Below, piece after piece: positions 1,141 to 9,423 of a stretch of 13,162 nucleotides of DNA; positions within the stretch are counted from its first letter, which is position 1, and each line of letters begins with the position of its first letter. The notes under the pieces are model-generated. The model was not told where the DNA came from and did not search any database. It was given only the letters and a program-made list of their open reading frames with translations. A program made the position numbers and the translations under genes. Origin of the DNA: a virus (taxonomy: Duplodnaviria; Heunggongvirae; Uroviricota; Caudoviricetes); IMG/VR virus record IMGVR_UViG_3300000292_000107. The stretch is one strand, 5' to 3'.

Positions 1141-3516
1141 ATGACAGTAAAAATTTCTGGCGTGCTTAAAGATGGCACAGGAAAACCAGTACAGAACTGC
1201 ACCATTGTGCTGAAGGCCAGACGAACCAGCAGCACGGTGGTGGTGAACACGGTGGCCTCTGAAAATCCGGATGAAGCCGGACGTTACAGCATGGATGTTG
1301 AGCATGGTCAGTACAGCGTCACCCTGCTGGTTGAAGGTTTTCCGCCTTCACATGCCGGGACCATTACCGTCTATGAAGGTTCCAGACCAGGTACGCTGAA
1401 TGATTTTCTCGGTGCCATGACGGAAGATGATGTCATGCCGGAGGCATTGCGTCGTTTTGAGGCAATGGTGGAAGAAGCGGCACGCAACGCCGAAGCCGCC
1501 TCTCAGAGCGCAGCGGCGGCAAAGAAATCCGAAACTGCAGCGGCATCATCGAAGAACGCAGCGAAAACCTCAGAAACGAATGCAGCTAATAGTGCACAGG
1601 CGGCAGCGACCTCAAAGACTGCATCGGCAAACTACGCGACAGCAGCCAAAAAATCAGAAACCAACGCGAAAAATAGCGAGACAGCCGCAAAGACGAGCGA
1701 AACCAACGCAAAGTCCAGCCAGACGGCAGCGAAGACCAGCGAAACGAATGCTAAAGCCAGTGAAACTGCAGCAAAAAACAGCCAGGTTTCAGCAGCCCAA
1801 AGCGAGAGTGCCGCTGCCGGTTCTGCGACTTCAGCTGCCGGATCAGCAACTGCTGCGGCTAACAGCCAGAAAGCTGCGAAGACGAGTGAAACTAACGCAA
1901 AGTCCAGCCAGACGGCAGCGAAGACCAGCGAAACGAATGCCAAAGCCAGCGAAACTGCGGCGAAAAACAGTCAGGATGCAGCAGCCCAAAGCGAGAGTGC
2001 CGCAGCTGGTTCTGCAAGTGCGGCGGCTTCTTCTGCCACTGCATCAGCCAACAGTCAAAAAGCTGCAAAAACCAGTGAAACCAACGCAAAGGCGAGCGAG
2101 ACTGCGGCGGCTAACTCGGCGAAAGCATCCGCTGCAAGCCAGACAGCAGCTAAAGCAAGTGAGGATGCAGCCAGAGAGTATGCAAGCCAGGCTGCGGAGC
2201 CGTATAAACAAGTATTGCAGCCGCTTCCTGATGTGTGGATACCATTTAACGATTCACTGGATATGATTACGGGGTTTTCGCCGTCATATAAAAAGATTGT
2301 TATTGGTGATGATGAAATAACGATGCCTGGCGATAAGGTTGTAAAGTTTAAACGCGCATCGAAAGCAACCTATATTAATAAATCTGGTGTGCTGACAGAG
2401 GCTGCCATTGACGAGCCACGATTTGAACGTGATGGCCTGCTTATTGAGGGGCAAAGAACAAACTACATGCTCAATTCGGAAAGCCCTGCCAGTTGGGGGC
2501 GATCGTCAAATATGGATGTGCCCGAAACAGGGACGGATAATTTTGGTTTTACCTATGGAAAGTTTGTCTGCAACGATTCTCTGATTGGGCAAACCTCAGC
2601 CATTAATATGGCATCAATTGCTGCAACAAAGTCAGTTGATGTCTCAGGCGATAATAAACACGTGACAACCTCATGTCGTTTTAAAACAGAACTGCAGGTA
2701 AGGTTGCGTATCCGGTTTGATAAATATGACGGTAGCGCAACAACTTTTCTTGGTGATGCGTATATTGATACACAAACGCTTGAAATTAATATGACAGGCG
2801 GTGCTGCCTCAAGGATTACAGCGAGAGTCAGAAAGGACGAAGCTACCGGATGGATTTTTGCAGAGGCAACAATTCAGGCAATTGATGGGGAGTTAAAAAT
2901 AGGTTCTCAGATACAGTATTCTCCTAAGCAGGGCGGGGCAACCGTATCTGGTGACTATATTTATCTGGCCACCCCACAAGTAGAAAATGGGCCTTGTGTA
3001 TCATCTTTTATTATATCAGGAACGACGGCGGCGACCCGCGCAAGCGATATAGTTACAGTTCCCATTAAGAATAATCTTTATAATCTTCCTTTTACGGTTC
3101 TTTGTGAGGTACATAAGAACTGGTATAAAACGCCAAATGCAGCGCCGCGTGTTTTTGATACCGGCGGTCATCAAACCGGAGCGGCTATTATTCTTGGGTT
3201 CGGATCTGCGGCAGATGGGCCAGACGGATTTCCTTATTGCGATATTGGAGGAGCTAACAGACGGGTAAACGAAAACGCATCGCTTGAAAAAATGGTTATG
3301 GGGATGCGTGTAAAATCAGATCAGTCTACGTGCTCAGTAAGTAACGGGCGCATATCCAGCGAAAAAAAGACTACGTGGTCCTATATTCAGAACTCTGCAA
3401 CCATCCGTATTGGAGGCCAGACTACAGCAGGGTCACGTCATTTATTTGGTCATATCAGGAATTTCAGAATATGGCACAAGGCATTGACTGATGCTCAGGT
3501 GGGGGAGTCAATCTAA
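1141..3516 (+). CDS. stf: Side tail fibre protein (Stf-like) with lambda-like N-terminal anchor, Ala/Ser/Thr/Lys-rich repeat shaft and a divergent C-terminal LamG/ConA-like domain
   Basis: 791-aa ORF. The first ~110 aa (MTVKISGVLKDGTGKPVQNCTI...GRYSMDVEHGQYSV...FPPSHAGTITVYE) resemble the lambda Stf N-terminus as I recall it. The middle is built of KTSETNAK-type repeats. The C-terminus ends LFGHIRNFRIWHKALTDAQV, which looks like a laminin-G/ConA-like jelly-roll terminus. Position after lom matches lambda. Confidence 0.85.
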   Translation: MTVKISGVLKDGTGKPVQNCTIVLKARRTSSTVVVNTVASENPDEAGRYSMDVEHGQYSVTLLVEGFPPSHAGTITVYEGSRPGTLNDFLGAMTEDDVMPEALRRFEAMVEEAARNAEAASQSAAAAKKSETAAASSKNAAKTSETNAANSAQAAATSKTASANYATAAKKSETNAKNSETAAKTSETNAKSSQTAAKTSETNAKASETAAKNSQVSAAQSESAAAGSATSAAGSATAAANSQKAAKTSETNAKSSQTAAKTSETNAKASETAAKNSQDAAAQSESAAAGSASAAASSATASANSQKAAKTSETNAKASETAAANSAKASAASQTAAKASEDAAREYASQAAEPYKQVLQPLPDVWIPFNDSLDMITGFSPSYKKIVIGDDEITMPGDKVVKFKRASKATYINKSGVLTEAAIDEPRFERDGLLIEGQRTNYMLNSESPASWGRSSNMDVPETGTDNFGFTYGKFVCNDSLIGQTSAINMASIAATKSVDVSGDNKHVTTSCRFKTELQVRLRIRFDKYDGSATTFLGDAYIDTQTLEINMTGGAASRITARVRKDEATGWIFAEATIQAIDGELKIGSQIQYSPKQGGATVSGDYIYLATPQVENGPCVSSFIISGTTAATRASDIVTVPIKNNLYNLPFTVLCEVHKNWYKTPNAAPRVFDTGGHQTGAAIILGFGSAADGPDGFPYCDIGGANRRVNENASLEKMVMGMRVKSDQSTCSVSNGRISSEKKTTWSYIQNSATIRIGGQTTAGSRHLFGHIRNFRIWHKALTDAQVGESI
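1640..2110 (+). repeat. Nested in-frame tandem repeats inside stf: two full 189-bp units plus partial flanking copies, built from 24-27-bp sub-repeats
   Basis: Unit 1 at about 1691-1879 and unit 2 at about 1880-2068 are near-identical (anchors AAGTCCAGCCAGACGGCAGCGAAGACCAGCGAAACGAATGC at 1711 and 1900; GCAGCCCAAAGCGAGAGTGCCGC at 1792 and 1981). The period of 189 nt is 63 codons. Confidence 0.85.
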
Positions 3517-3797
3517 TGAAAGATTTAACACTCAAATTTGCCGACAGGGCCGACTTTTCGGCCTTTATGGAGAGTGCTGGCTATTATGATGACGAGTCGA
3601 TGCAGGATGATATTCTTATTGACGTGATAGGTAACGTGTACAAAGAAACCGGAGAACTTACTGAAGATGGCGAGCCGGTATGTGTTAAGGAAGACGGATA
3701 TTTTGTAAACGTGCGCATCATTAATGATGTGAAAACACCGTCAATATTCGATGAATACGTGGTTGCTGTTGAGCATCAACTTCGTGGCTGGATGTGA
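3516..3797 (+). CDS. Hypothetical acidic 93-aa protein, translationally coupled to stf
   Basis: Its ATG overlaps the stf stop (TAATG at 3514-3518). The ORF stops 9 nt before the next gene. I recognise no domain. Confidence 0.55.
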   Translation: MKDLTLKFADRADFSAFMESAGYYDDESMQDDILIDVIGNVYKETGELTEDGEPVCVKEDGYFVNVRIINDVKTPSIFDEYVVAVEHQLRGWM

Positions 3798-3806
3798 GGA
3801 AGAATA

Positions 3807-4847
3807 ATGGCTACATCGACAGTAATTCCTGATGACATCAAAACGCTAAAATCCGATGTTAGCAAATTAAAAAACGATCAAGGAAGCTACGTAACAAAAT
3901 CATATGTAGACAGCAAAAATGAAACCGTTAATGACTGGTCTGCTGCATGGTATCAGCAGGTACTGCCAACTAGCGGAGCTATATTTGGGCGAAAACTTCG
4001 CTCAACTCACAGGACGGCAGGTGTTGAGGATGCGTATTGCGAACTATACCTCAAAAAATGGATAGACAGTCCAGGTAACGCAATGGCGCGCCTTAACCTG
4101 AACGATAACGGGACAAACATTTGCTGGGACTTTACCAACCTTTATGGCGGTACGATGATTTTTCCCGGTGACAGCGGATACCTCAAAATGGGTAACTGCC
4201 TTATGTCATACAGCAAGCGTGGAAGTAACGCGCTTATTAAATTTGATTACACCGACACATTACAGATCAAATATGCCAATCATGGGTCAACCATGACATT
4301 AAACACACAGGGAACCGCTTATGCTGGTGTTACTGCTCAATTGTGGGGCAACTCCAGCCGTCCTGTTGTTTATGAAGTCGGTGTTGATGGTGGCGCTTAT
4401 ATGTTCTATGCGCAGAAAAATACCGATAACACCTATATGTTAAGCGTTAATGGTGCATGTCATGCCACCGCATTTAACCAGCATTCCGACCGGGATCTGA
4501 AAGACAACATTCAGGTGATCGATAATGCAACCGACCGCATCCGTAAAATGAACGGCTATACATACACGCTTAAAGAAAACGGTATGCCCTATGCTGGTGT
4601 CATTGCACAGGAAGCTCTGGAAGCAATCCCAGAAGTTGTAGGTTCCGCAATGAAATATCAGGACGGTGCAAGCGGATCGGAAGGTGAAGAAGGTGAACGT
4701 TATTACACAGTAGATTATTCTGGTGTTACTGGCTTGCTTGTTCAGGTAGCCAGAGAGTCAGACGACAGAATAACAGCACTGGAAGAAGAAAACGCAGAAT
4801 TAAGACAAAGATTATCTGCAATTGAGGCGGCGCTTGCGTCTAAATAA
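3807..4847 (+). CDS. Tail fibre/tailspike-like protein with C-terminal peptidase-S74 intramolecular chaperone domain
   Basis: 346-aa ORF with SD GAGGAAG upstream. The C-terminal ~120 aa begin SDRDLKDNI (Ser at codon 227, nt 4485-4487, with Lys five residues later), then NGYTYTLKENGMPYAGVIAQEALEAIPEVV...YYTVDYSGVTGLL and a terminal coiled-coil (ITALEEENAELRQRLSAIEAAL). This matches the autoproteolytic chaperone domain of endosialidase and T5 pb1-type fibres. Confidence 0.75.
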   Translation: MATSTVIPDDIKTLKSDVSKLKNDQGSYVTKSYVDSKNETVNDWSAAWYQQVLPTSGAIFGRKLRSTHRTAGVEDAYCELYLKKWIDSPGNAMARLNLNDNGTNICWDFTNLYGGTMIFPGDSGYLKMGNCLMSYSKRGSNALIKFDYTDTLQIKYANHGSTMTLNTQGTAYAGVTAQLWGNSSRPVVYEVGVDGGAYMFYAQKNTDNTYMLSVNGACHATAFNQHSDRDLKDNIQVIDNATDRIRKMNGYTYTLKENGMPYAGVIAQEALEAIPEVVGSAMKYQDGASGSEGEEGERYYTVDYSGVTGLLVQVARESDDRITALEEENAELRQRLSAIEAALASK

Positions 4848-4853
4848 TATCAA

Positions 4854-4876
4854 GGGGCCGAGCGCCCCGTTTTATT
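4854..4876 (+). terminator. Candidate rho-independent terminator ending the fibre operon
   Basis: GGGGC (4854-4858) pairs with GCCCC (4864-4868) around a 5-nt loop, followed by TTTT at 4870-4873. Confidence 0.5.
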
Positions 4877-4889
4877 GGGTAGGATGAAA

Positions 4890-5177
4890 ATGGATATAAC
4901 ACCTTTCCTTCATGCGCTTTGTGCTGTGGCTGCGCAGCTACTGATTGGTCTTTTTACCGGGAACTGGGCTTACGGGGCGATAGCCGGTTGTACGTTCTTC
5001 ATTGCGCGTGAACACACCCAGGCAGAATATCGCTGGATTGAAATGTTTGGGCATGGCAAGAGGATTAACATGCCGTGGTGGGGCGGTTTTGATCCGCGCG
5101 TGTGGGATGTGGCAAGCCTGATGGATTTTGCTGTGCCGGTGGTGGCGTGTCTGCTGATCTGGATGTTGATCCGTTAA
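4890..5177 (+). CDS. Small hydrophobic membrane protein of unknown function (prophage moron)
   Basis: The track ORF starts at a TTG (4875). In-frame ATGs lie at 4884 and 4890; AGGA at 4881-4884 is well spaced for 4890. The protein has two or three predicted hydrophobic helices (FLHALCAVAAQLLIGLF, AIAGCTFFIA, FAVPVVACLLIWMLI). Confidence 0.55.
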   Translation: MDITPFLHALCAVAAQLLIGLFTGNWAYGAIAGCTFFIAREHTQAEYRWIEMFGHGKRINMPWWGGFDPRVWDVASLMDFAVPVVACLLIWMLIR

Positions 5178-5180
5178 ATA

Positions 5181-5227
5181 TAAAAAGTAAAAAGCCGCAG
5201 TAACTTGTCATGATAGGATACTGCGGC
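5181..5227 (-). terminator. Candidate terminator for the dinI-like gene
   Basis: 9-bp stem GCCGCAGTA (5194-5202) / TACTGCGGC (5219-5227) around a 16-nt loop; on the minus strand it is followed by a T-rich run (complement of 5181-5193). The large loop is atypical. Confidence 0.4.
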
Positions 5228-5294
5228 TGGCTGGTTAACTTTCGATAGTGCGAGTATTGAATGATTTCCAGCCGTTACTGATTTTACGTGCTAA

Positions 5295-5543
5295 TTAGTG
5301 AACAAACCACTCGTCAGCAGACTCCCAGGTATCTTTCAGAGTTTCCTGAACAAAAGTTTTAGCTGAATCTTTATCGGCGGTGCGCGTAACAGAAAGGCCA
5401 TCGTTGCTGGTGGCTTTTACGATCACCTCTACATCGTCATAACGTTTACTGATGCGTCGGGTTAATTCTTCCTTTAACGCATCCACAGCACCGTTTGGCA
5501 TTTTAGTCATTTTTTCTTTGGCTATGCAGATCTCAATACGCAT
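5295..5543 (-). CDS. dinI: DinI-family protein (SOS-inducible RecA modulator homologue, prophage-encoded)
   Basis: 82-aa [12 protein letters not shown]...[13 protein letters not shown]...LSV...[16 protein letters not shown] shares the conserved blocks of E. coli DinI as I recall it. SD GAGGGA lies 6 nt upstream and two LexA boxes immediately upstream of that. Confidence 0.85.
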
Positions 5544-5556
5544 AAAAGTCCCTCTA

Positions 5557-5576
5557 TACTGTGTTTGTATACAGTA
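5557..5576 (-). promoter_or_regulatory. LexA box 1 (SOS operator) proximal to the dinI-like start
   Basis: TACTGTGTTTGTATACAGTA fits the CTGT-N8-ACAG consensus with AT-rich spacer; it lies 14 nt upstream of the dinI ATG. Confidence 0.8.
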
Positions 5577-5584
5577 TTATTTTT

Positions 5585-5604
5585 AACTGTATGGATAAAC
5601 AGTG
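5585..5604 (-). promoter_or_regulatory. LexA box 2, directly abutting the integrase stop codon
   Basis: AACTGTATGGATAAACAGTG fits CTGT-N8-ACAG. It is 28 bp centre-to-centre from box 1 and ends 1 nt before the int stop (5605-5607). Confidence 0.7.
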
Positions 5605-6702
5605 TCAAGAGGTCTTATTTCTGCTCCTTTGGAGCTCTTCAAAACGATTATGTAAAGATTTCGGATACAGTTCGGTATATACCTGCCATAGCACGTTTAA
5701 TGAACGATGCCCTGTAACCTGAGCGACTTCCTCAATACTAAAACCAGCCTCAAATAAGCGACTTGCCCCTTCTCTACGCAAATCATGGTATCGCAGATCT
5801 TTAATACCTAATTTGCTTCTTACCCTCTGAAATCCTGCAGTAACAGAAGTGCTGTTATATGGAAAAATGAATTCCGATTTTTTGGGCTGTCGTTGGACGA
5901 TATCCCAGGCTTCCCCAAGCAAGGCTACTTTCATGTGGTTGCCTTCCTTTTTGCGTGGATCTTTCCTGTCTCTTACGAGTATAGATTTTTGTTCCTGGTC
6001 GAGATCTTCCCATCGTAACCGGCATACTTCTCCGATCCGCATACAGGACCACACAGAAAATTTGAGGATATCAACGAACGGAATTTTTGAGCATTTATGA
6101 GTAGATCGTTGTTGAAGGCCTTCAATGAGCATGTCCAGTTCATCAGATGCTGGTCTACGATTCCGACGGTTTGATTTACCAATCAAACCAAGTTTAAGTA
6201 GATATGGGCGAGCGCTTTTCGCCGGGTTTGATGTGTAATTAATTCCGTATACAGGTTTGGCCGCATCCAGAACACTGCCAAGATAACTAACATCGTGGCT
6301 GACTGTTGCTGGACCTGCACCAGCGTTGTTTCTTAGCCTGCAATGTTCAATTACGTCATTTTCTGTCAGTTCAGATAGTTTGATCGCGGAGATGTCACTA
6401 TCCATAAGCAGTTCCAGCACATATCTTTTAGTACGGCCTGCTTTACCTCCGGCATTTGGGTCATTTAAATATTTGTGTAGTAAGTCACGGACTGTAAGTC
6501 CGTCAACTGGATTTGATGATGGAATGCCATATAGATCTAATTCCATCACTTTCTGTGTTCCCCATGTTTTGGCATGAGCATGTTTAGGGAATGTTTTGCT
6601 TTCCCTGTAAGTGATAACACCTTTTTCTTTGATAATCACATTACAGCGATAGCGTGGTGTGCCATCGGATTTTAGTCGTTTCTCTATGTTATAGTACGCC
6701 AT
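5605..6702 (-). CDS. int: Tyrosine recombinase / phage integrase (dusA-associated integrase type)
   Basis: 365-aa ORF with tyrosine-recombinase catalytic signatures in the C-terminal half (R in CMRIGEVCRLRWEDL; YHDLRREGAS box; GHRSLNVLWQVY with the catalytic Tyr). SD GAGG upstream. It lies divergent to, and 88 bp from, the dusA start. Confidence 0.9.
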   Translation of the reverse strand: MAYYNIEKRLKSDGTPRYRCNVIIKEKGVITYRESKTFPKHAHAKTWGTQKVMELDLYGIPSSNPVDGLTVRDLLHKYLNDPNAGGKAGRTKRYVLELLMDSDISAIKLSELTENDVIEHCRLRNNAGAGPATVSHDVSYLGSVLDAAKPVYGINYTSNPAKSARPYLLKLGLIGKSNRRNRRPASDELDMLIEGLQQRSTHKCSKIPFVDILKFSVWSCMRIGEVCRLRWEDLDQEQKSILVRDRKDPRKKEGNHMKVALLGEAWDIVQRQPKKSEFIFPYNSTSVTAGFQRVRSKLGIKDLRYHDLRREGASRLFEAGFSIEEVAQVTGHRSLNVLWQVYTELYPKSLHNRFEELQRSRNKTS

Positions 6703-6721
6703 TACACGACCTCGTTATTTC

Positions 6722-6757
6722 GGGTTCCCATAAAACGTGGGAACCTGTGCGGGAACC
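6722..6757. promoter_or_regulatory. Inverted plus direct repeat in the int-dusA intergenic region; candidate integrase or regulator binding site
   Basis: GGTTCCCA (6723-6730) and its inverted copy TGGGAACC (6738-6745) flank a 7-nt spacer, and GGGAACC recurs at 6751-6757. It lies 20-55 bp upstream of the int ATG and has no flanking T-run, so it is not a terminator. Confidence 0.4.
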
Positions 6758-6790
6758 TAACGCGAGAAAAATAGCCTGAAATGTTCAAAA

Positions 6791-7828
6791 ATGCACGATA
6801 ATCATGAAACACAAAAAATTAATCAAACCAGCGTGATGCCTGAAAAAACTGGTGTTTACTGGAATTCTCGGTTTAGCATTGCTCCTATGCTTGACTGGAC
6901 GGACAGACATTGCCGTTATTTCTTGCGTCTGCTTTCCCGCAATACGTTGCTGTATACCGAAATGGTGACCACAGGGGCGATTATTCACGGTAAAGGTGAT
7001 TACCTGGCGTACAGTGAAGAAGAACATCCGGTAGCGTTGCAACTCGGGGGTAGCGATCCGGCGGCGCTGGCACAGTGTGCGAAGCTGGCAGAAGCGCGTG
7101 GATACGATGAGATCAACCTGAATGTCGGCTGCCCGTCTGACCGGGTGCAGAACGGCATGTTTGGTGCGTGTCTGATGGGTAATGCGCAGCTGGTTGCCGA
7201 CTGCGTGAAAGCGATGCGCGATGTGGTGTCGATTCCGGTGACGGTGAAAACGCGTATTGGCATCGATGATCAGGACAGCTATGAATTTCTCTGCGATTTC
7301 ATCAACACCGTTTCCGGCAAAGGTGAGTGTGAGATGTTCATCATCCACGCACGTAAAGCCTGGCTTTCTGGGTTAAGTCCGAAAGAAAACCGTGAGATCC
7401 CGCCTCTCGATTATCCGCGTGTGTATCAACTGAAGCGTGACTTTCCGCATCTGACGATGTCGATTAACGGTGGTATCAAGTCGCTGGAAGAAGCTAAAGC
7501 GCATTTGCAACATATGGATGGCGTGATGGTCGGGCGCGAGGCGTATCAGAATCCGGGGATTCTGGCGGCGGTAGACCGAGAGATTTTTGGTTCCTCGGAT
7601 ACCGATGCCGATCCGGTGGCGGTAGTGCGCGCCATGTATCCGTACATTGAGCGTGAACTCAGCCAGGGTACGTATCTCGGCCATATTACCCGGCATATGC
7701 TGGGCTTGTTCCAGGGTATTCCTGGCGCGCGGCAGTGGCGGCGTTATTTAAGTGAAAATGCCCATAAAGCGGGTGCAGACATTAATGTGCTGGAACACGC
7801 GCTCAAACTGGTAGCGGATAAGCGTTAA
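6791..7828 (+). CDS. dusA: tRNA-dihydrouridine synthase A
   Basis: 345-aa ORF with the Dus-family FMN-binding core ([32 protein letters not shown]) as recalled for enterobacterial DusA. No clear SD at 6791; an in-frame ATG at 6836 (MPEKT...) is an alternative start. Confidence 0.9.
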
Positions 7829-8370: not shown

Positions 8371-9423
8371 ATGGAATCAATAGGCTGGAACCCTGCGTCG
8401 CCCGGCTTTCCAGAATCTCATGCGCACGCCGCGCATCCTTCAGCGGATATTTCTGCTGCTCGGCGACATCGACCTTAATCACACCGCTGGCAATCAAAGA
8501 GAACAGTTCATTACTGGCCTCGGTTAATTCCTCCCGCGTGGTGATATAGCCTTGCAGGGAAGGGCGTGTCACATACAACGAGCCTTTCTGATTGAGAATG
8601 CCTAAGTTCACACCGGTAACCGCACCTGATGAGTTGCCAAAACTCACCATTAAGCCGCGGCGTTGCAGGCAATCCAGCGACCGTTCCCAGGTGTCTCTGC
8701 CCACTGAATCGTACACCACGCGCACTTTCTTACCACCGGTGATCTCTTTCAATCGCTCGACCAGATTCTCTTCACGATAGTTAATAACCTGCCACGCGCC
8801 CGCTTTTAGCGCACTCTGCGCTTTTTGCGNNNNNNNNNNNNNNNNNNNNNNNNNNNNNNNNNNNNNNNNNNNNNNNNNNNNNNNNNNNNNNNNNNNNNNN
8901 NNNNNNNNNNNNNGCCGATAAGTTTCGCGCCCAGGGCTTTTGCCCACTGGCAGGCAATCAAGCCAACGCCGCCAGCCGCTGCGTGGAACAGGAACTGTTC
9001 ATCGGGTTTAATTTCATAGGTTTTGCGCAGCAGATAATAAACCGTTAAGCCTTTCAGGAAGGATGCCGCAGCTTGCTCAAAAGAAATTGCCGCAGGCAGA
9101 ATCGCCGCTTTATCTGCATTAATGTTATGCACAGAGCTGTAAGCGCCTAATGCCGATTGTGCATAGACTACGCGATCGCCTGCCTTAATATGCTTTACAC
9201 CACTGCCGACTTTACTCACGATGCCTGCCGCTTCGGTACCTAATCCGCTGGGTAGCGATGGCGGCGGGTAAAGGCCGCTGCGGATATACGTGTCGATAAA
9301 ATTGATGCCGATGGCTTTATTTTCGACCTGGATTTCATTCTCCGCCGGATCGGCAGGAGTGAACTCTACGGCTTGAAGTACTTCCGGGCCACCGTGCTTG
9401 TGAAATTCAATTCGTATTGCCAT
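8369..9423 (-). CDS. qorA: NADPH:quinone oxidoreductase (zeta-crystallin family), interrupted by an 84-N run at 8830-8913
   Basis: The two minus-strand track ORFs (8806..9423 and 8369..8947) are the N- and C-terminal parts of one Qor-like protein (GAGGVG nucleotide-binding motif; C-terminus ...ESRATQGSSLLIP). SD AAGGAG lies upstream of the ATG at 9423. The parts are in different frames across the N run. Confidence 0.8.

Follow-up and report, generated by a model that had tools for sequence, protein, structure and literature searches.

The stretch analysed here, a window of 13,162 nucleotides filed as IMG/VR record IMGVR_UViG_3300000292_000107 (Caudoviricetes), is an Escherichia coli chromosome segment that carries the right end of a lambdoid prophage adjoining dusA. 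On its plus strand, at positions 3807–4847, lies a gene for a short tail-fibre protein of 346 amino acids with a C-terminal S74 intramolecular chaperone domain, referred to below as ORF346. With a probability of about 0.7, this protein serves as an exchangeable, receptor-binding distal subunit in a composite side fibre, whose proximal part is the Stf protein encoded upstream, the steps of folding, cleavage and docking being drawn from homology and synteny. ORF346 is in itself a common, already annotated tail-fibre protein of a known kind; what is added here is that it belongs to a conserved composite-fibre cassette of three genes, which is horizontally mobile and includes an unexplained partner of 92 amino acids.

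The reading frame of ORF346 is intact, running from an ATG at 3807 through 346 codons to the stop, and a GAGGAAG Shine–Dalgarno sequence lies a few bases 5′ of the start. The whole protein (1–346 of 346) is covered by phrog_4563, ‘tail fiber protein’ (E = 4.6e-219), and its orthologue in syntenic RefSeq records, WP_001306186, is named ‘tail fiber domain-containing protein’. An initial annotation, made from the sequence and its translations, had described a short fibre-like protein with an S74 chaperone in its last 120 residues, and the Pfam search run to check this bears it out. PF13884 (Peptidase_S74, ‘chaperone of endosialidase’) matches residues 227–278, equivalent to profile positions 1–57 of 58, with E = 4.8e-14 and a score of 52.8 bits, the gathering cutoff being 22 bits, a result that puts the sequence match far beyond chance; NCBIfam yielded no family for ORF346. 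In searches of the PDB, the single ORF346 sequence finds gp37 of Salmonella phage S16 (6f45, E = 4e-4 to 1e-3), the alignment falling on the chaperone region of that protein. Neither direct nor profile searches of that database reached the chaperone chains of T5 pb1 or K1F endosialidase, returning only S16 gp37 and T4 gp34, and it is therefore the Pfam profile that places ORF346 in the S74 family.

The catalytic signature expected of this family is also present. Nucleotides 4485–4502 encode SDRDLK, predicted to hold the scissile and nucleophilic Ser227 and the activating Lys232 in the S-x4-K arrangement, as the initial annotation had recognised, and the spacing equals that of Ser1264 and Lys1269 in T5 pb1. 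In the T5 protein the chain is cut between Thr1263 and Ser1264, Lys1269 activates the serine and the substitution S1264A stops processing (PMC4690869). The motif serine stands at position 1 of the PF13884 profile in ORF346 and in four other distal-fibre proteins. An alignment of 76 homologues has no variation at S227, D228, L231 or K232, nor at a block of residues lying between 235 and 332. Of 120 database homologues, 116 have SDRDLK, SDRELK or SDKDLK, the other four being truncated or partial entries. The S74 domain (residues 227–346, nt 4485–4844), delimited by PF13884, the 6f45 alignment and the structural model, occupies the extreme C-terminus of the protein. In the AlphaFold2 single-chain model, to which all structural statements on ORF346 refer, it is preceded by β-strands at residues 59–214 and ends in a helix at residues 304–345 (nt 4716–4841), with a predicted local distance difference test score (pLDDT) of 85–93. 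From family membership we infer that ORF346 cleaves itself. Division before Ser227 would give parts with computed masses of 24.9 kDa (residues 1–226) and 13.2 kDa (the 120 residues 227–346), in agreement with the mature part of about 226 residues and the fragments of roughly 25 and 13 kDa first proposed. As to the folding sensor described for T5, Arg1250/Asp1239 of a neighbouring subunit, ORF346 lacks an arginine 13–14 residues upstream of S227; the invariant R185 and E190 are candidates only for its counterparts.

The 226 residues in front of the dyad have the build of a small fibre. At the N-terminus, alignments of homologues reveal a conserved motif at residues 1–16 (MATSTVIPDDIKTLKS, nt 3807–3854), a proposed docking peptide that is kept even in homologues with an overall identity of just 39–46%. 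It runs into a predicted α-helix at residues 9–30 (nt 3831–3896), and the same region in relatives is built of DVSTLKS-type 7-residue repeats in variable number, which suggests that it forms a trimeric coiled-coil stalk. The β-rich body and tip of the mature fibre (residues 59–226, nt 3981–4484) are defined by the model, by alignments and by PHROG matches, the latter to the distal parts of long tail fibres, and the β-rich segment between residues ~45 and 170 is the most variable in the alignments. Just before the predicted cleavage site lies a conserved β-module (residues ~170–226, nt 4314–4484), which, when the family profile is compared with the PDB, matches T4 gp34, the proximal long tail fibre (4uxe and 5nxf, E = 2e-9 to 5e-9); W180, G181, R185 and E190 are invariant in this module among the 76 aligned sequences.

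Two genes stand directly upstream of ORF346 and are central to its interpretation. The first, stf (1141–3516, plus strand), encodes a proximal side tail fibre of 791 residues, which begins with the anchor domain PF08400 (residues 1–131, E = 1.2e-67), continues in a shaft of Ala/Ser/Thr-rich repeats and finishes in a globular part that ends in a LamG/ConA-like signature (nt ~3349–3501). The corresponding Laminin_G_3 match is weak (E = 2.8e-4, under the cutoff), and the NCBIfam ‘head spike fiber’ domain NF048003 falls on residues 434–634. The shaft at ~1440–2180 is an Ala/Ser/Thr/Lys-rich repeat with internal duplications (SETNAK.../AAKTSE...), and it yields spurious long open reading frames in other frames and on the other strand (1427–2266 on the plus strand, 1632–1943 on the minus strand).

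The second gene, orf93 (3516–3797, plus strand; phrog_1361), encodes a small acidic protein of ~92 residues, 10.7 kDa and pI 4.1. It gave no match in Pfam or NCBIfam, and thus no chaperone gene of the Tfa type (Caudo_TAP) was recognised after stf. The initial label ‘lambda-type Stf’ holds for the PF08400 N-terminus and fails for the remainder, since residues 130–791 are 53% identical to gp22 of the Tequintavirus IrisVonRoten (Bas32) and no Tfa-type gene follows that these families recognise. In 181 phage records an orf93 homologue comes after the gene for the proximal fibre; the records comprise lambdoid, T1-like, Dhillonvirus, Queuovirinae and T5-like phages, and rV5-like phages with partial coverage. 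The listed matches of the homologue search are all at least 85% identical ‘hypothetical proteins’ and offer no functional lead, and an AlphaFold2 model built from a shallow alignment (pLDDT 47) is unusable. We propose that the product is a chaperone or connector of the composite fibre. The three genes are arranged head to tail: the start of orf93 overlaps the stf stop, a 9-nt gap separates orf93 from ORF346, and a terminator-like GC hairpin and T tract (GGGGCCGAGCGCCCC then GTTTTATT, 4854–4875, plus strand) starts 7 nt past the ORF346 stop. These junctions, taken with the hairpin, indicate that stf, orf93 and ORF346 are probably co-expressed at the end of the late region.

The same cassette is met again in lambdoid, T1-like, Dhillonvirus, Queuovirinae and T5-like phages. 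It is composed of a long fibre with a LamG-like end, an acidic protein of ~92 residues and a short protein that begins M-x-T-x-T-x-I-P-x-D-I-x-x-L-K and in most cases has an S74 domain. The loci inspected were those of PhiR49_1, IrisVonRoten, VogelGryff, tuinn, PeterMerian and KarlBarth, in which the gene after the 92-aa frame starts M-[AV]-[TK]-x-T-x-I-P-x-D-I-[TK]-x-L-K and is otherwise diverse, from 98 to 574 residues; overall, over five phage groups, most of the inspected loci have the N-terminal motif on the gene downstream of the 92-aa frame. PF13884 scored above the cutoff in the four downstream proteins tested. More distant ORF346 homologues lie on a 59.5-kb Queuovirinae-like contig, a 45-kb contig and a 50-kb T1-like contig, each preceded by an orf93 homologue of 91–93 residues and, upstream of that, by a fibre gene whose last ~100–120 residues closely resemble the C-terminus of the window Stf. 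The sole C-terminal fibre fragment that was compared separately (L005) is 86% identical to the window Stf over 97 residues. The predicted mature parts of proteins with the N-terminal motif range from ~105 residues in PeterMerian and PhiR49_1 up to 463 in IrisVonRoten gp24, which places the 226 residues of ORF346 in the middle of the range for relatives at the same position; the view of the initial annotation that this mature part is unusually small is not supported by that comparison, nor by the presence of the gene in ~13% of complete E. coli genomes. The core reading of ORF346 in that annotation was nevertheless essentially right, as supported by sequence and comparative evidence.

A sign that these genes travel together comes from the virulent Nonagvirus vB_EcoS_ESCO3, which matches window positions 2218–4783 (4819–7381 of the ESCO3 locus, L002) with 94.35% identity over 2567 nt. 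On the plus strand, the matching module takes in the last ~430 residues of Stf, then orf93 and almost the entire ORF346. Such identity over this length implies that the Stf C-terminus, orf93 and ORF346 are transferred as one module between temperate and virulent phages, and points to a recent exchange of the fibre module between the prophage and the Nonagvirus. Within ORF346 the comparison with ESCO3 is mosaic, the synonymous divergence rising from 0.05 at residues 46–170 to 0.83 at residues 171–226, a jump that indicates a recombination breakpoint inside the gene.

Considering where ORF346 might be attached, the anchors of the proximal fibres differ among these groups, the match of IrisVonRoten gp22, for example, starting only at Stf residue 130, while the distal N-terminal motif, the proximal fibre's C-terminal portion and the 92-aa protein are common to them. 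The partner of the motif is for this reason most simply the Stf C-terminus or the 92-aa protein, and the simplest reading of these comparisons is that ORF346 would dock on the end of Stf, possibly via or together with Orf93, giving a composite or branched fibre and not one with its own anchor. Two loci qualify this. Phage 21 (L011, 1444–4085) lacks a distal gene: its stf and 92-aa gene are followed after 12 nt by that for the membrane protein, and the C-terminal domain of its Stf is unlike that of the window save for the last ~35 residues; a distal subunit would on this evidence be optional. PhiR49_1 has a protein with the N-terminal motif beside an Stf with a different C-terminal domain, save for the last ~45 residues, and since only these are shared the docking surface on Stf is undefined. 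ORF346 and the 234-aa protein of PhiR49_1 themselves have their main shared region at residues 1–31, with a second weak match (E = 0.008) in the S74 domain. A subdomain of Stf, ‘FDTGGHQ...DGFPYCDIG’, was considered as the docking site, phage 21 lacking both it and the distal gene, and was rejected as a firm rule on finding that PhiR49_1 has a distal gene and a different subdomain.

The initial annotation had suggested a dual-fibre or branched apparatus formed with Stf. The shared N-terminal motif, Stf C-terminus and 92-aa protein favour the composite or branched form, and it is unlikely that ORF346 is instead an independent second fibre, fixed on its own to the tail tip or the baseplate so that the particle would bear two separately anchored fibre sets. 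That arrangement would suit a separate gene with its own ribosome-binding site, the BASEL papers (PMC8594841, PMC11990801) describe phages that bear two fibre sets independent of each other, and the Stf of phage 21 exists without a gene of the ORF346 type. Yet no recognisable tail-attachment domain was found in ORF346, which in that position has no more than a stretch of ~16 conserved residues with a short coiled coil, and the motif is the same across five phage groups whose tail tips differ but which share the Stf C-terminal part and orf93. It is, moreover, with the Stf C-terminus that ORF346 has been co-transferred, not with tail-tip genes.

A less probable proposal still is that ORF346 acts in trans as an assembly chaperone of Stf and is no structural receptor-binding protein at all. 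GenBank labels such as ‘endosialidase chaperone’ and ‘putative lateral tail fiber chaperone’ in ESCO3, VogelGryff and PeterMerian would agree with this, as would the relatives of 231–234 residues that have nearly no mature part, and the failure of Pfam and NCBIfam to recognise a Tfa-type chaperone after Stf. The S74 domain of T5 pb1, however, lies within the chain whose folding it aids and from which it is then cut off (PMC4690869), and the 226 residues that precede the dyad in ORF346 are homologous to fibre shafts and tips, hypervariable and mosaic in the manner of receptor-binding regions. In phage 21, too, a related Stf occurs and no gene of this sort accompanies it.

The ‘minimal’ S74 proteins of 231–234 residues, at 3905–4609 in PhiR49_1 (L007) and 3792–4487 in PeterMerian (L013), consist of the N-terminal motif, a coiled coil, ~45 more residues and PF13884 from S116 or S106, with mature parts of ~105–115 residues; they may be either receptor binders or mere fibre caps. 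A further variant is seen in the Dhillonvirus KarlBarth (L014), where the motif is on a 98-aa frame (3770–4066) that overlaps by 8 nt a 196-aa frame (4059–4649) carrying PF25670 (Phage_tail_C_2) but lacking S74; the arrangement might reflect a split gene, a frameshift or a distal subunit in two pieces.

ORF346 is widespread and appears to be maintained. Its best protein cluster holds 2132 member sequences at 97% identity, and of 5426 complete E. coli genomes 710 (~13%) contain DNA of the mature part, 430 of these with at least 80% coverage. The region is intact at 97–98% identity in the plaque-forming temperate phages Tritos, 2G7b, HannyBb and PhiR63_1. In the literature on Tritos, 2G7b, HannyBb, ESCO3, PhiR63 and S74 fibres of lambdoid prophages, no description of this gene was found, and neither a preprint on receptor prediction nor the paper on KanT1 offered anything that bears on it. 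That ORF346 is a functionless, decaying C-terminal remnant of a longer fibre gene in a defective prophage is highly improbable: its C-terminal 73% does resemble the ends of S74 fibres of 450–600 residues (~44–58% identity) and pseudogene fragments are annotated nearby in syntenic loci, but the frame is intact, the length of 346 residues is constant in clusters of more than 2000 sequences, the ratio of nonsynonymous to synonymous substitution rates (dN/dS) against the ESCO3 copy is 0.23, indicating purifying selection, the protein has a conserved N-terminus of its own and the gene is present in isolated phages, one of them virulent.

If ORF346 is the distal subunit of the Stf fibre, its assembly may be pictured as follows. 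The S74 domain, with its coiled-coil helix (residues 304–345) and α/β part, would align three ORF346 chains and template the interdigitated β-structure between residues ~59 and 226. Once the trimer had folded, Ser227 activated by Lys232 would cut between His226 and Ser227, releasing the 13-kDa chaperone fragment and leaving a mature fibre of 3 × 25 kDa. The N-terminal peptide (residues 1–16) and the short coiled coil would then dock the trimer on the distal LamG/galectin-like end of Stf, possibly aided by the orf93 product. The mature tip would bind some variable glycan or protein of the cell surface, O-antigen or lipopolysaccharide (LPS) glycan being the likeliest, as proposed for related lateral fibres, which have been tied to O-antigen recognition (PMC8594841, PMC11990801), and this binding would serve as reversible adsorption before J engages the outer-membrane receptor.

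A bolder extension, which we put forward tentatively and hold to be somewhat doubtful, is that the N-terminal motif acts as a universal ‘plug’ for which the LamG-like end of the proximal fibre and orf93 form the ‘socket’, a connector common to at least five groups of coliphages, both temperate and virulent. Were this so, a distal gene of ~1 kb could be swapped between otherwise unrelated phages with a resulting change of host range, and Orf93, no bystander, would represent a new type of connector or chaperone for fibres. A plug of 15 residues would allow lambda-type particles and several families of virulent coliphages to be retargeted by exchange of a 1-kb gene, without a chimeric Stf; the 94%-identical module of 2.6 kb in a temperate prophage and a virulent Nonagvirus shows that such exchange already takes place in nature. 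In gut lambdoid phages, clusters of the J protein reportedly did not match host ranges (PMC6969025), and tips of the ORF346 type may bear on that mismatch.

The remaining genes of the window agree with its position at a prophage end. Upstream of stf lie the 3′ end of J (50–331) and lom (399–989), both on the plus strand. Downstream of the hairpin, a gene on the plus strand (4890–5177; phrog_1443) encodes a small predicted membrane protein of 95 residues, which is ~90% identical in phage 21 and PhiR49_1 and is annotated with two transmembrane domains in phage 21; it could be a moron or a gene related to superinfection. It is followed on the minus strand by dinI (5295–5543) and a tyrosine integrase gene (5605–6702), and then by dusA (6791–7828, plus strand), pspG and qorA. 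The stretch from the membrane-protein gene to dinI is matched by many lambdoid and Stx-converting phages, and in syntenic RefSeq records the interval between these two genes holds short fragments of pseudogenes, labelled ‘capsid protein’ and ‘tail fiber assembly protein’. The prophage junction between the integrase gene and dusA (5605–7828) recurs in further E. coli genomes (L001, L008). The coding sequences of lom (~830–841) and qorA (~8830–8920) are interrupted by masked bases, which translate as X and reflect masking of the supplied sequence, not biology.

Among known systems, the closest parallel is the gp22–gp23–gp24 cluster of IrisVonRoten, whose gene order and junction layout are identical to those of stf–orf93–ORF346. 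Besides the similarity of gp22 to Stf noted above, gp23 is 38% identical to orf93, the N-terminus of gp24 matches residues 1–17 of ORF346 (MATSTVIPDDIKTLK in ORF346, MVTKTVIPTDITKLK in gp24) and both distal proteins end in PF13884. Humolli et al. (2025) predicted with AlphaFold-Multimer that gp24 is attached to the proximal fibre gp22 (PMC11990801), and a galectin-like domain at the C-terminal end of gp22 was described as a possible additional receptor-binding domain (PMC11990801). The two systems differ in that gp24 is a T-shaped protein of 574 residues with two receptor-binding domains, unrelated to ORF346 beyond the N-terminal motif and the S74 domain, and in that the proximal fibre of IrisVonRoten is anchored by a T5-type N-terminus and LtfC whereas the window Stf has the lambda-type PF08400. 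IrisVonRoten is, in addition, a virulent phage of 112 kb and the window is from a temperate lambdoid one. In the T1-like and Dhillonvirus-like loci inspected, the cassette is the same as in the window.

T5 pb1 and K1F endosialidase share with ORF346 a C-terminal domain of ~120–133 residues with the Ser-x4-Lys dyad and a trimeric coiled-coil helix, placed after an interdigitated β-region. Whereas pb1 is a single-chain fibre of 1396 residues anchored straight to the tail, ORF346 has a mature part of 226 residues without an anchor domain. Another parallel is offered by the branched lateral fibres of DT57C and DT571/2, described by Golomidova (2016) and Ayala (2023), where a shorter second fibre (LtfB) is carried by the first (LtfA) and not by the tail, so that different O-antigens are recognisable. 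The branching of LtfA and LtfB in DT57C was established genetically (PMC4728585, PMC10713586), and its likeness to Stf and ORF346 is one of architecture as described. Gp36 of JakobBernoulli (Drexlerviridae) and Gp29 of RuthEpting (Dhillonvirus) likewise resemble ORF346 by description, having an N-terminal coiled coil, a T5-like tip and a C-terminal chaperone (PMC11990801), and both have been linked to recognition of the O16 O-antigen (PMC11990801); these phages are virulent, unlike the window prophage.

According to the BASEL work (PMC8594841), small siphoviruses may build their lateral fibres from a single protein or from at least two. Against the Stf–Tfa system of lambda, the window has its fibre genes at the same position, after J and lom, and shares the PF08400 N-terminus of Stf; only that N-terminus is lambda-like, the C-terminal two-thirds of the protein being of the IrisVonRoten gp22 type. 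Where lambda has a Tfa-type gene after stf, the window has orf93, with no family match, and then a third gene, ORF346, as a further tip.

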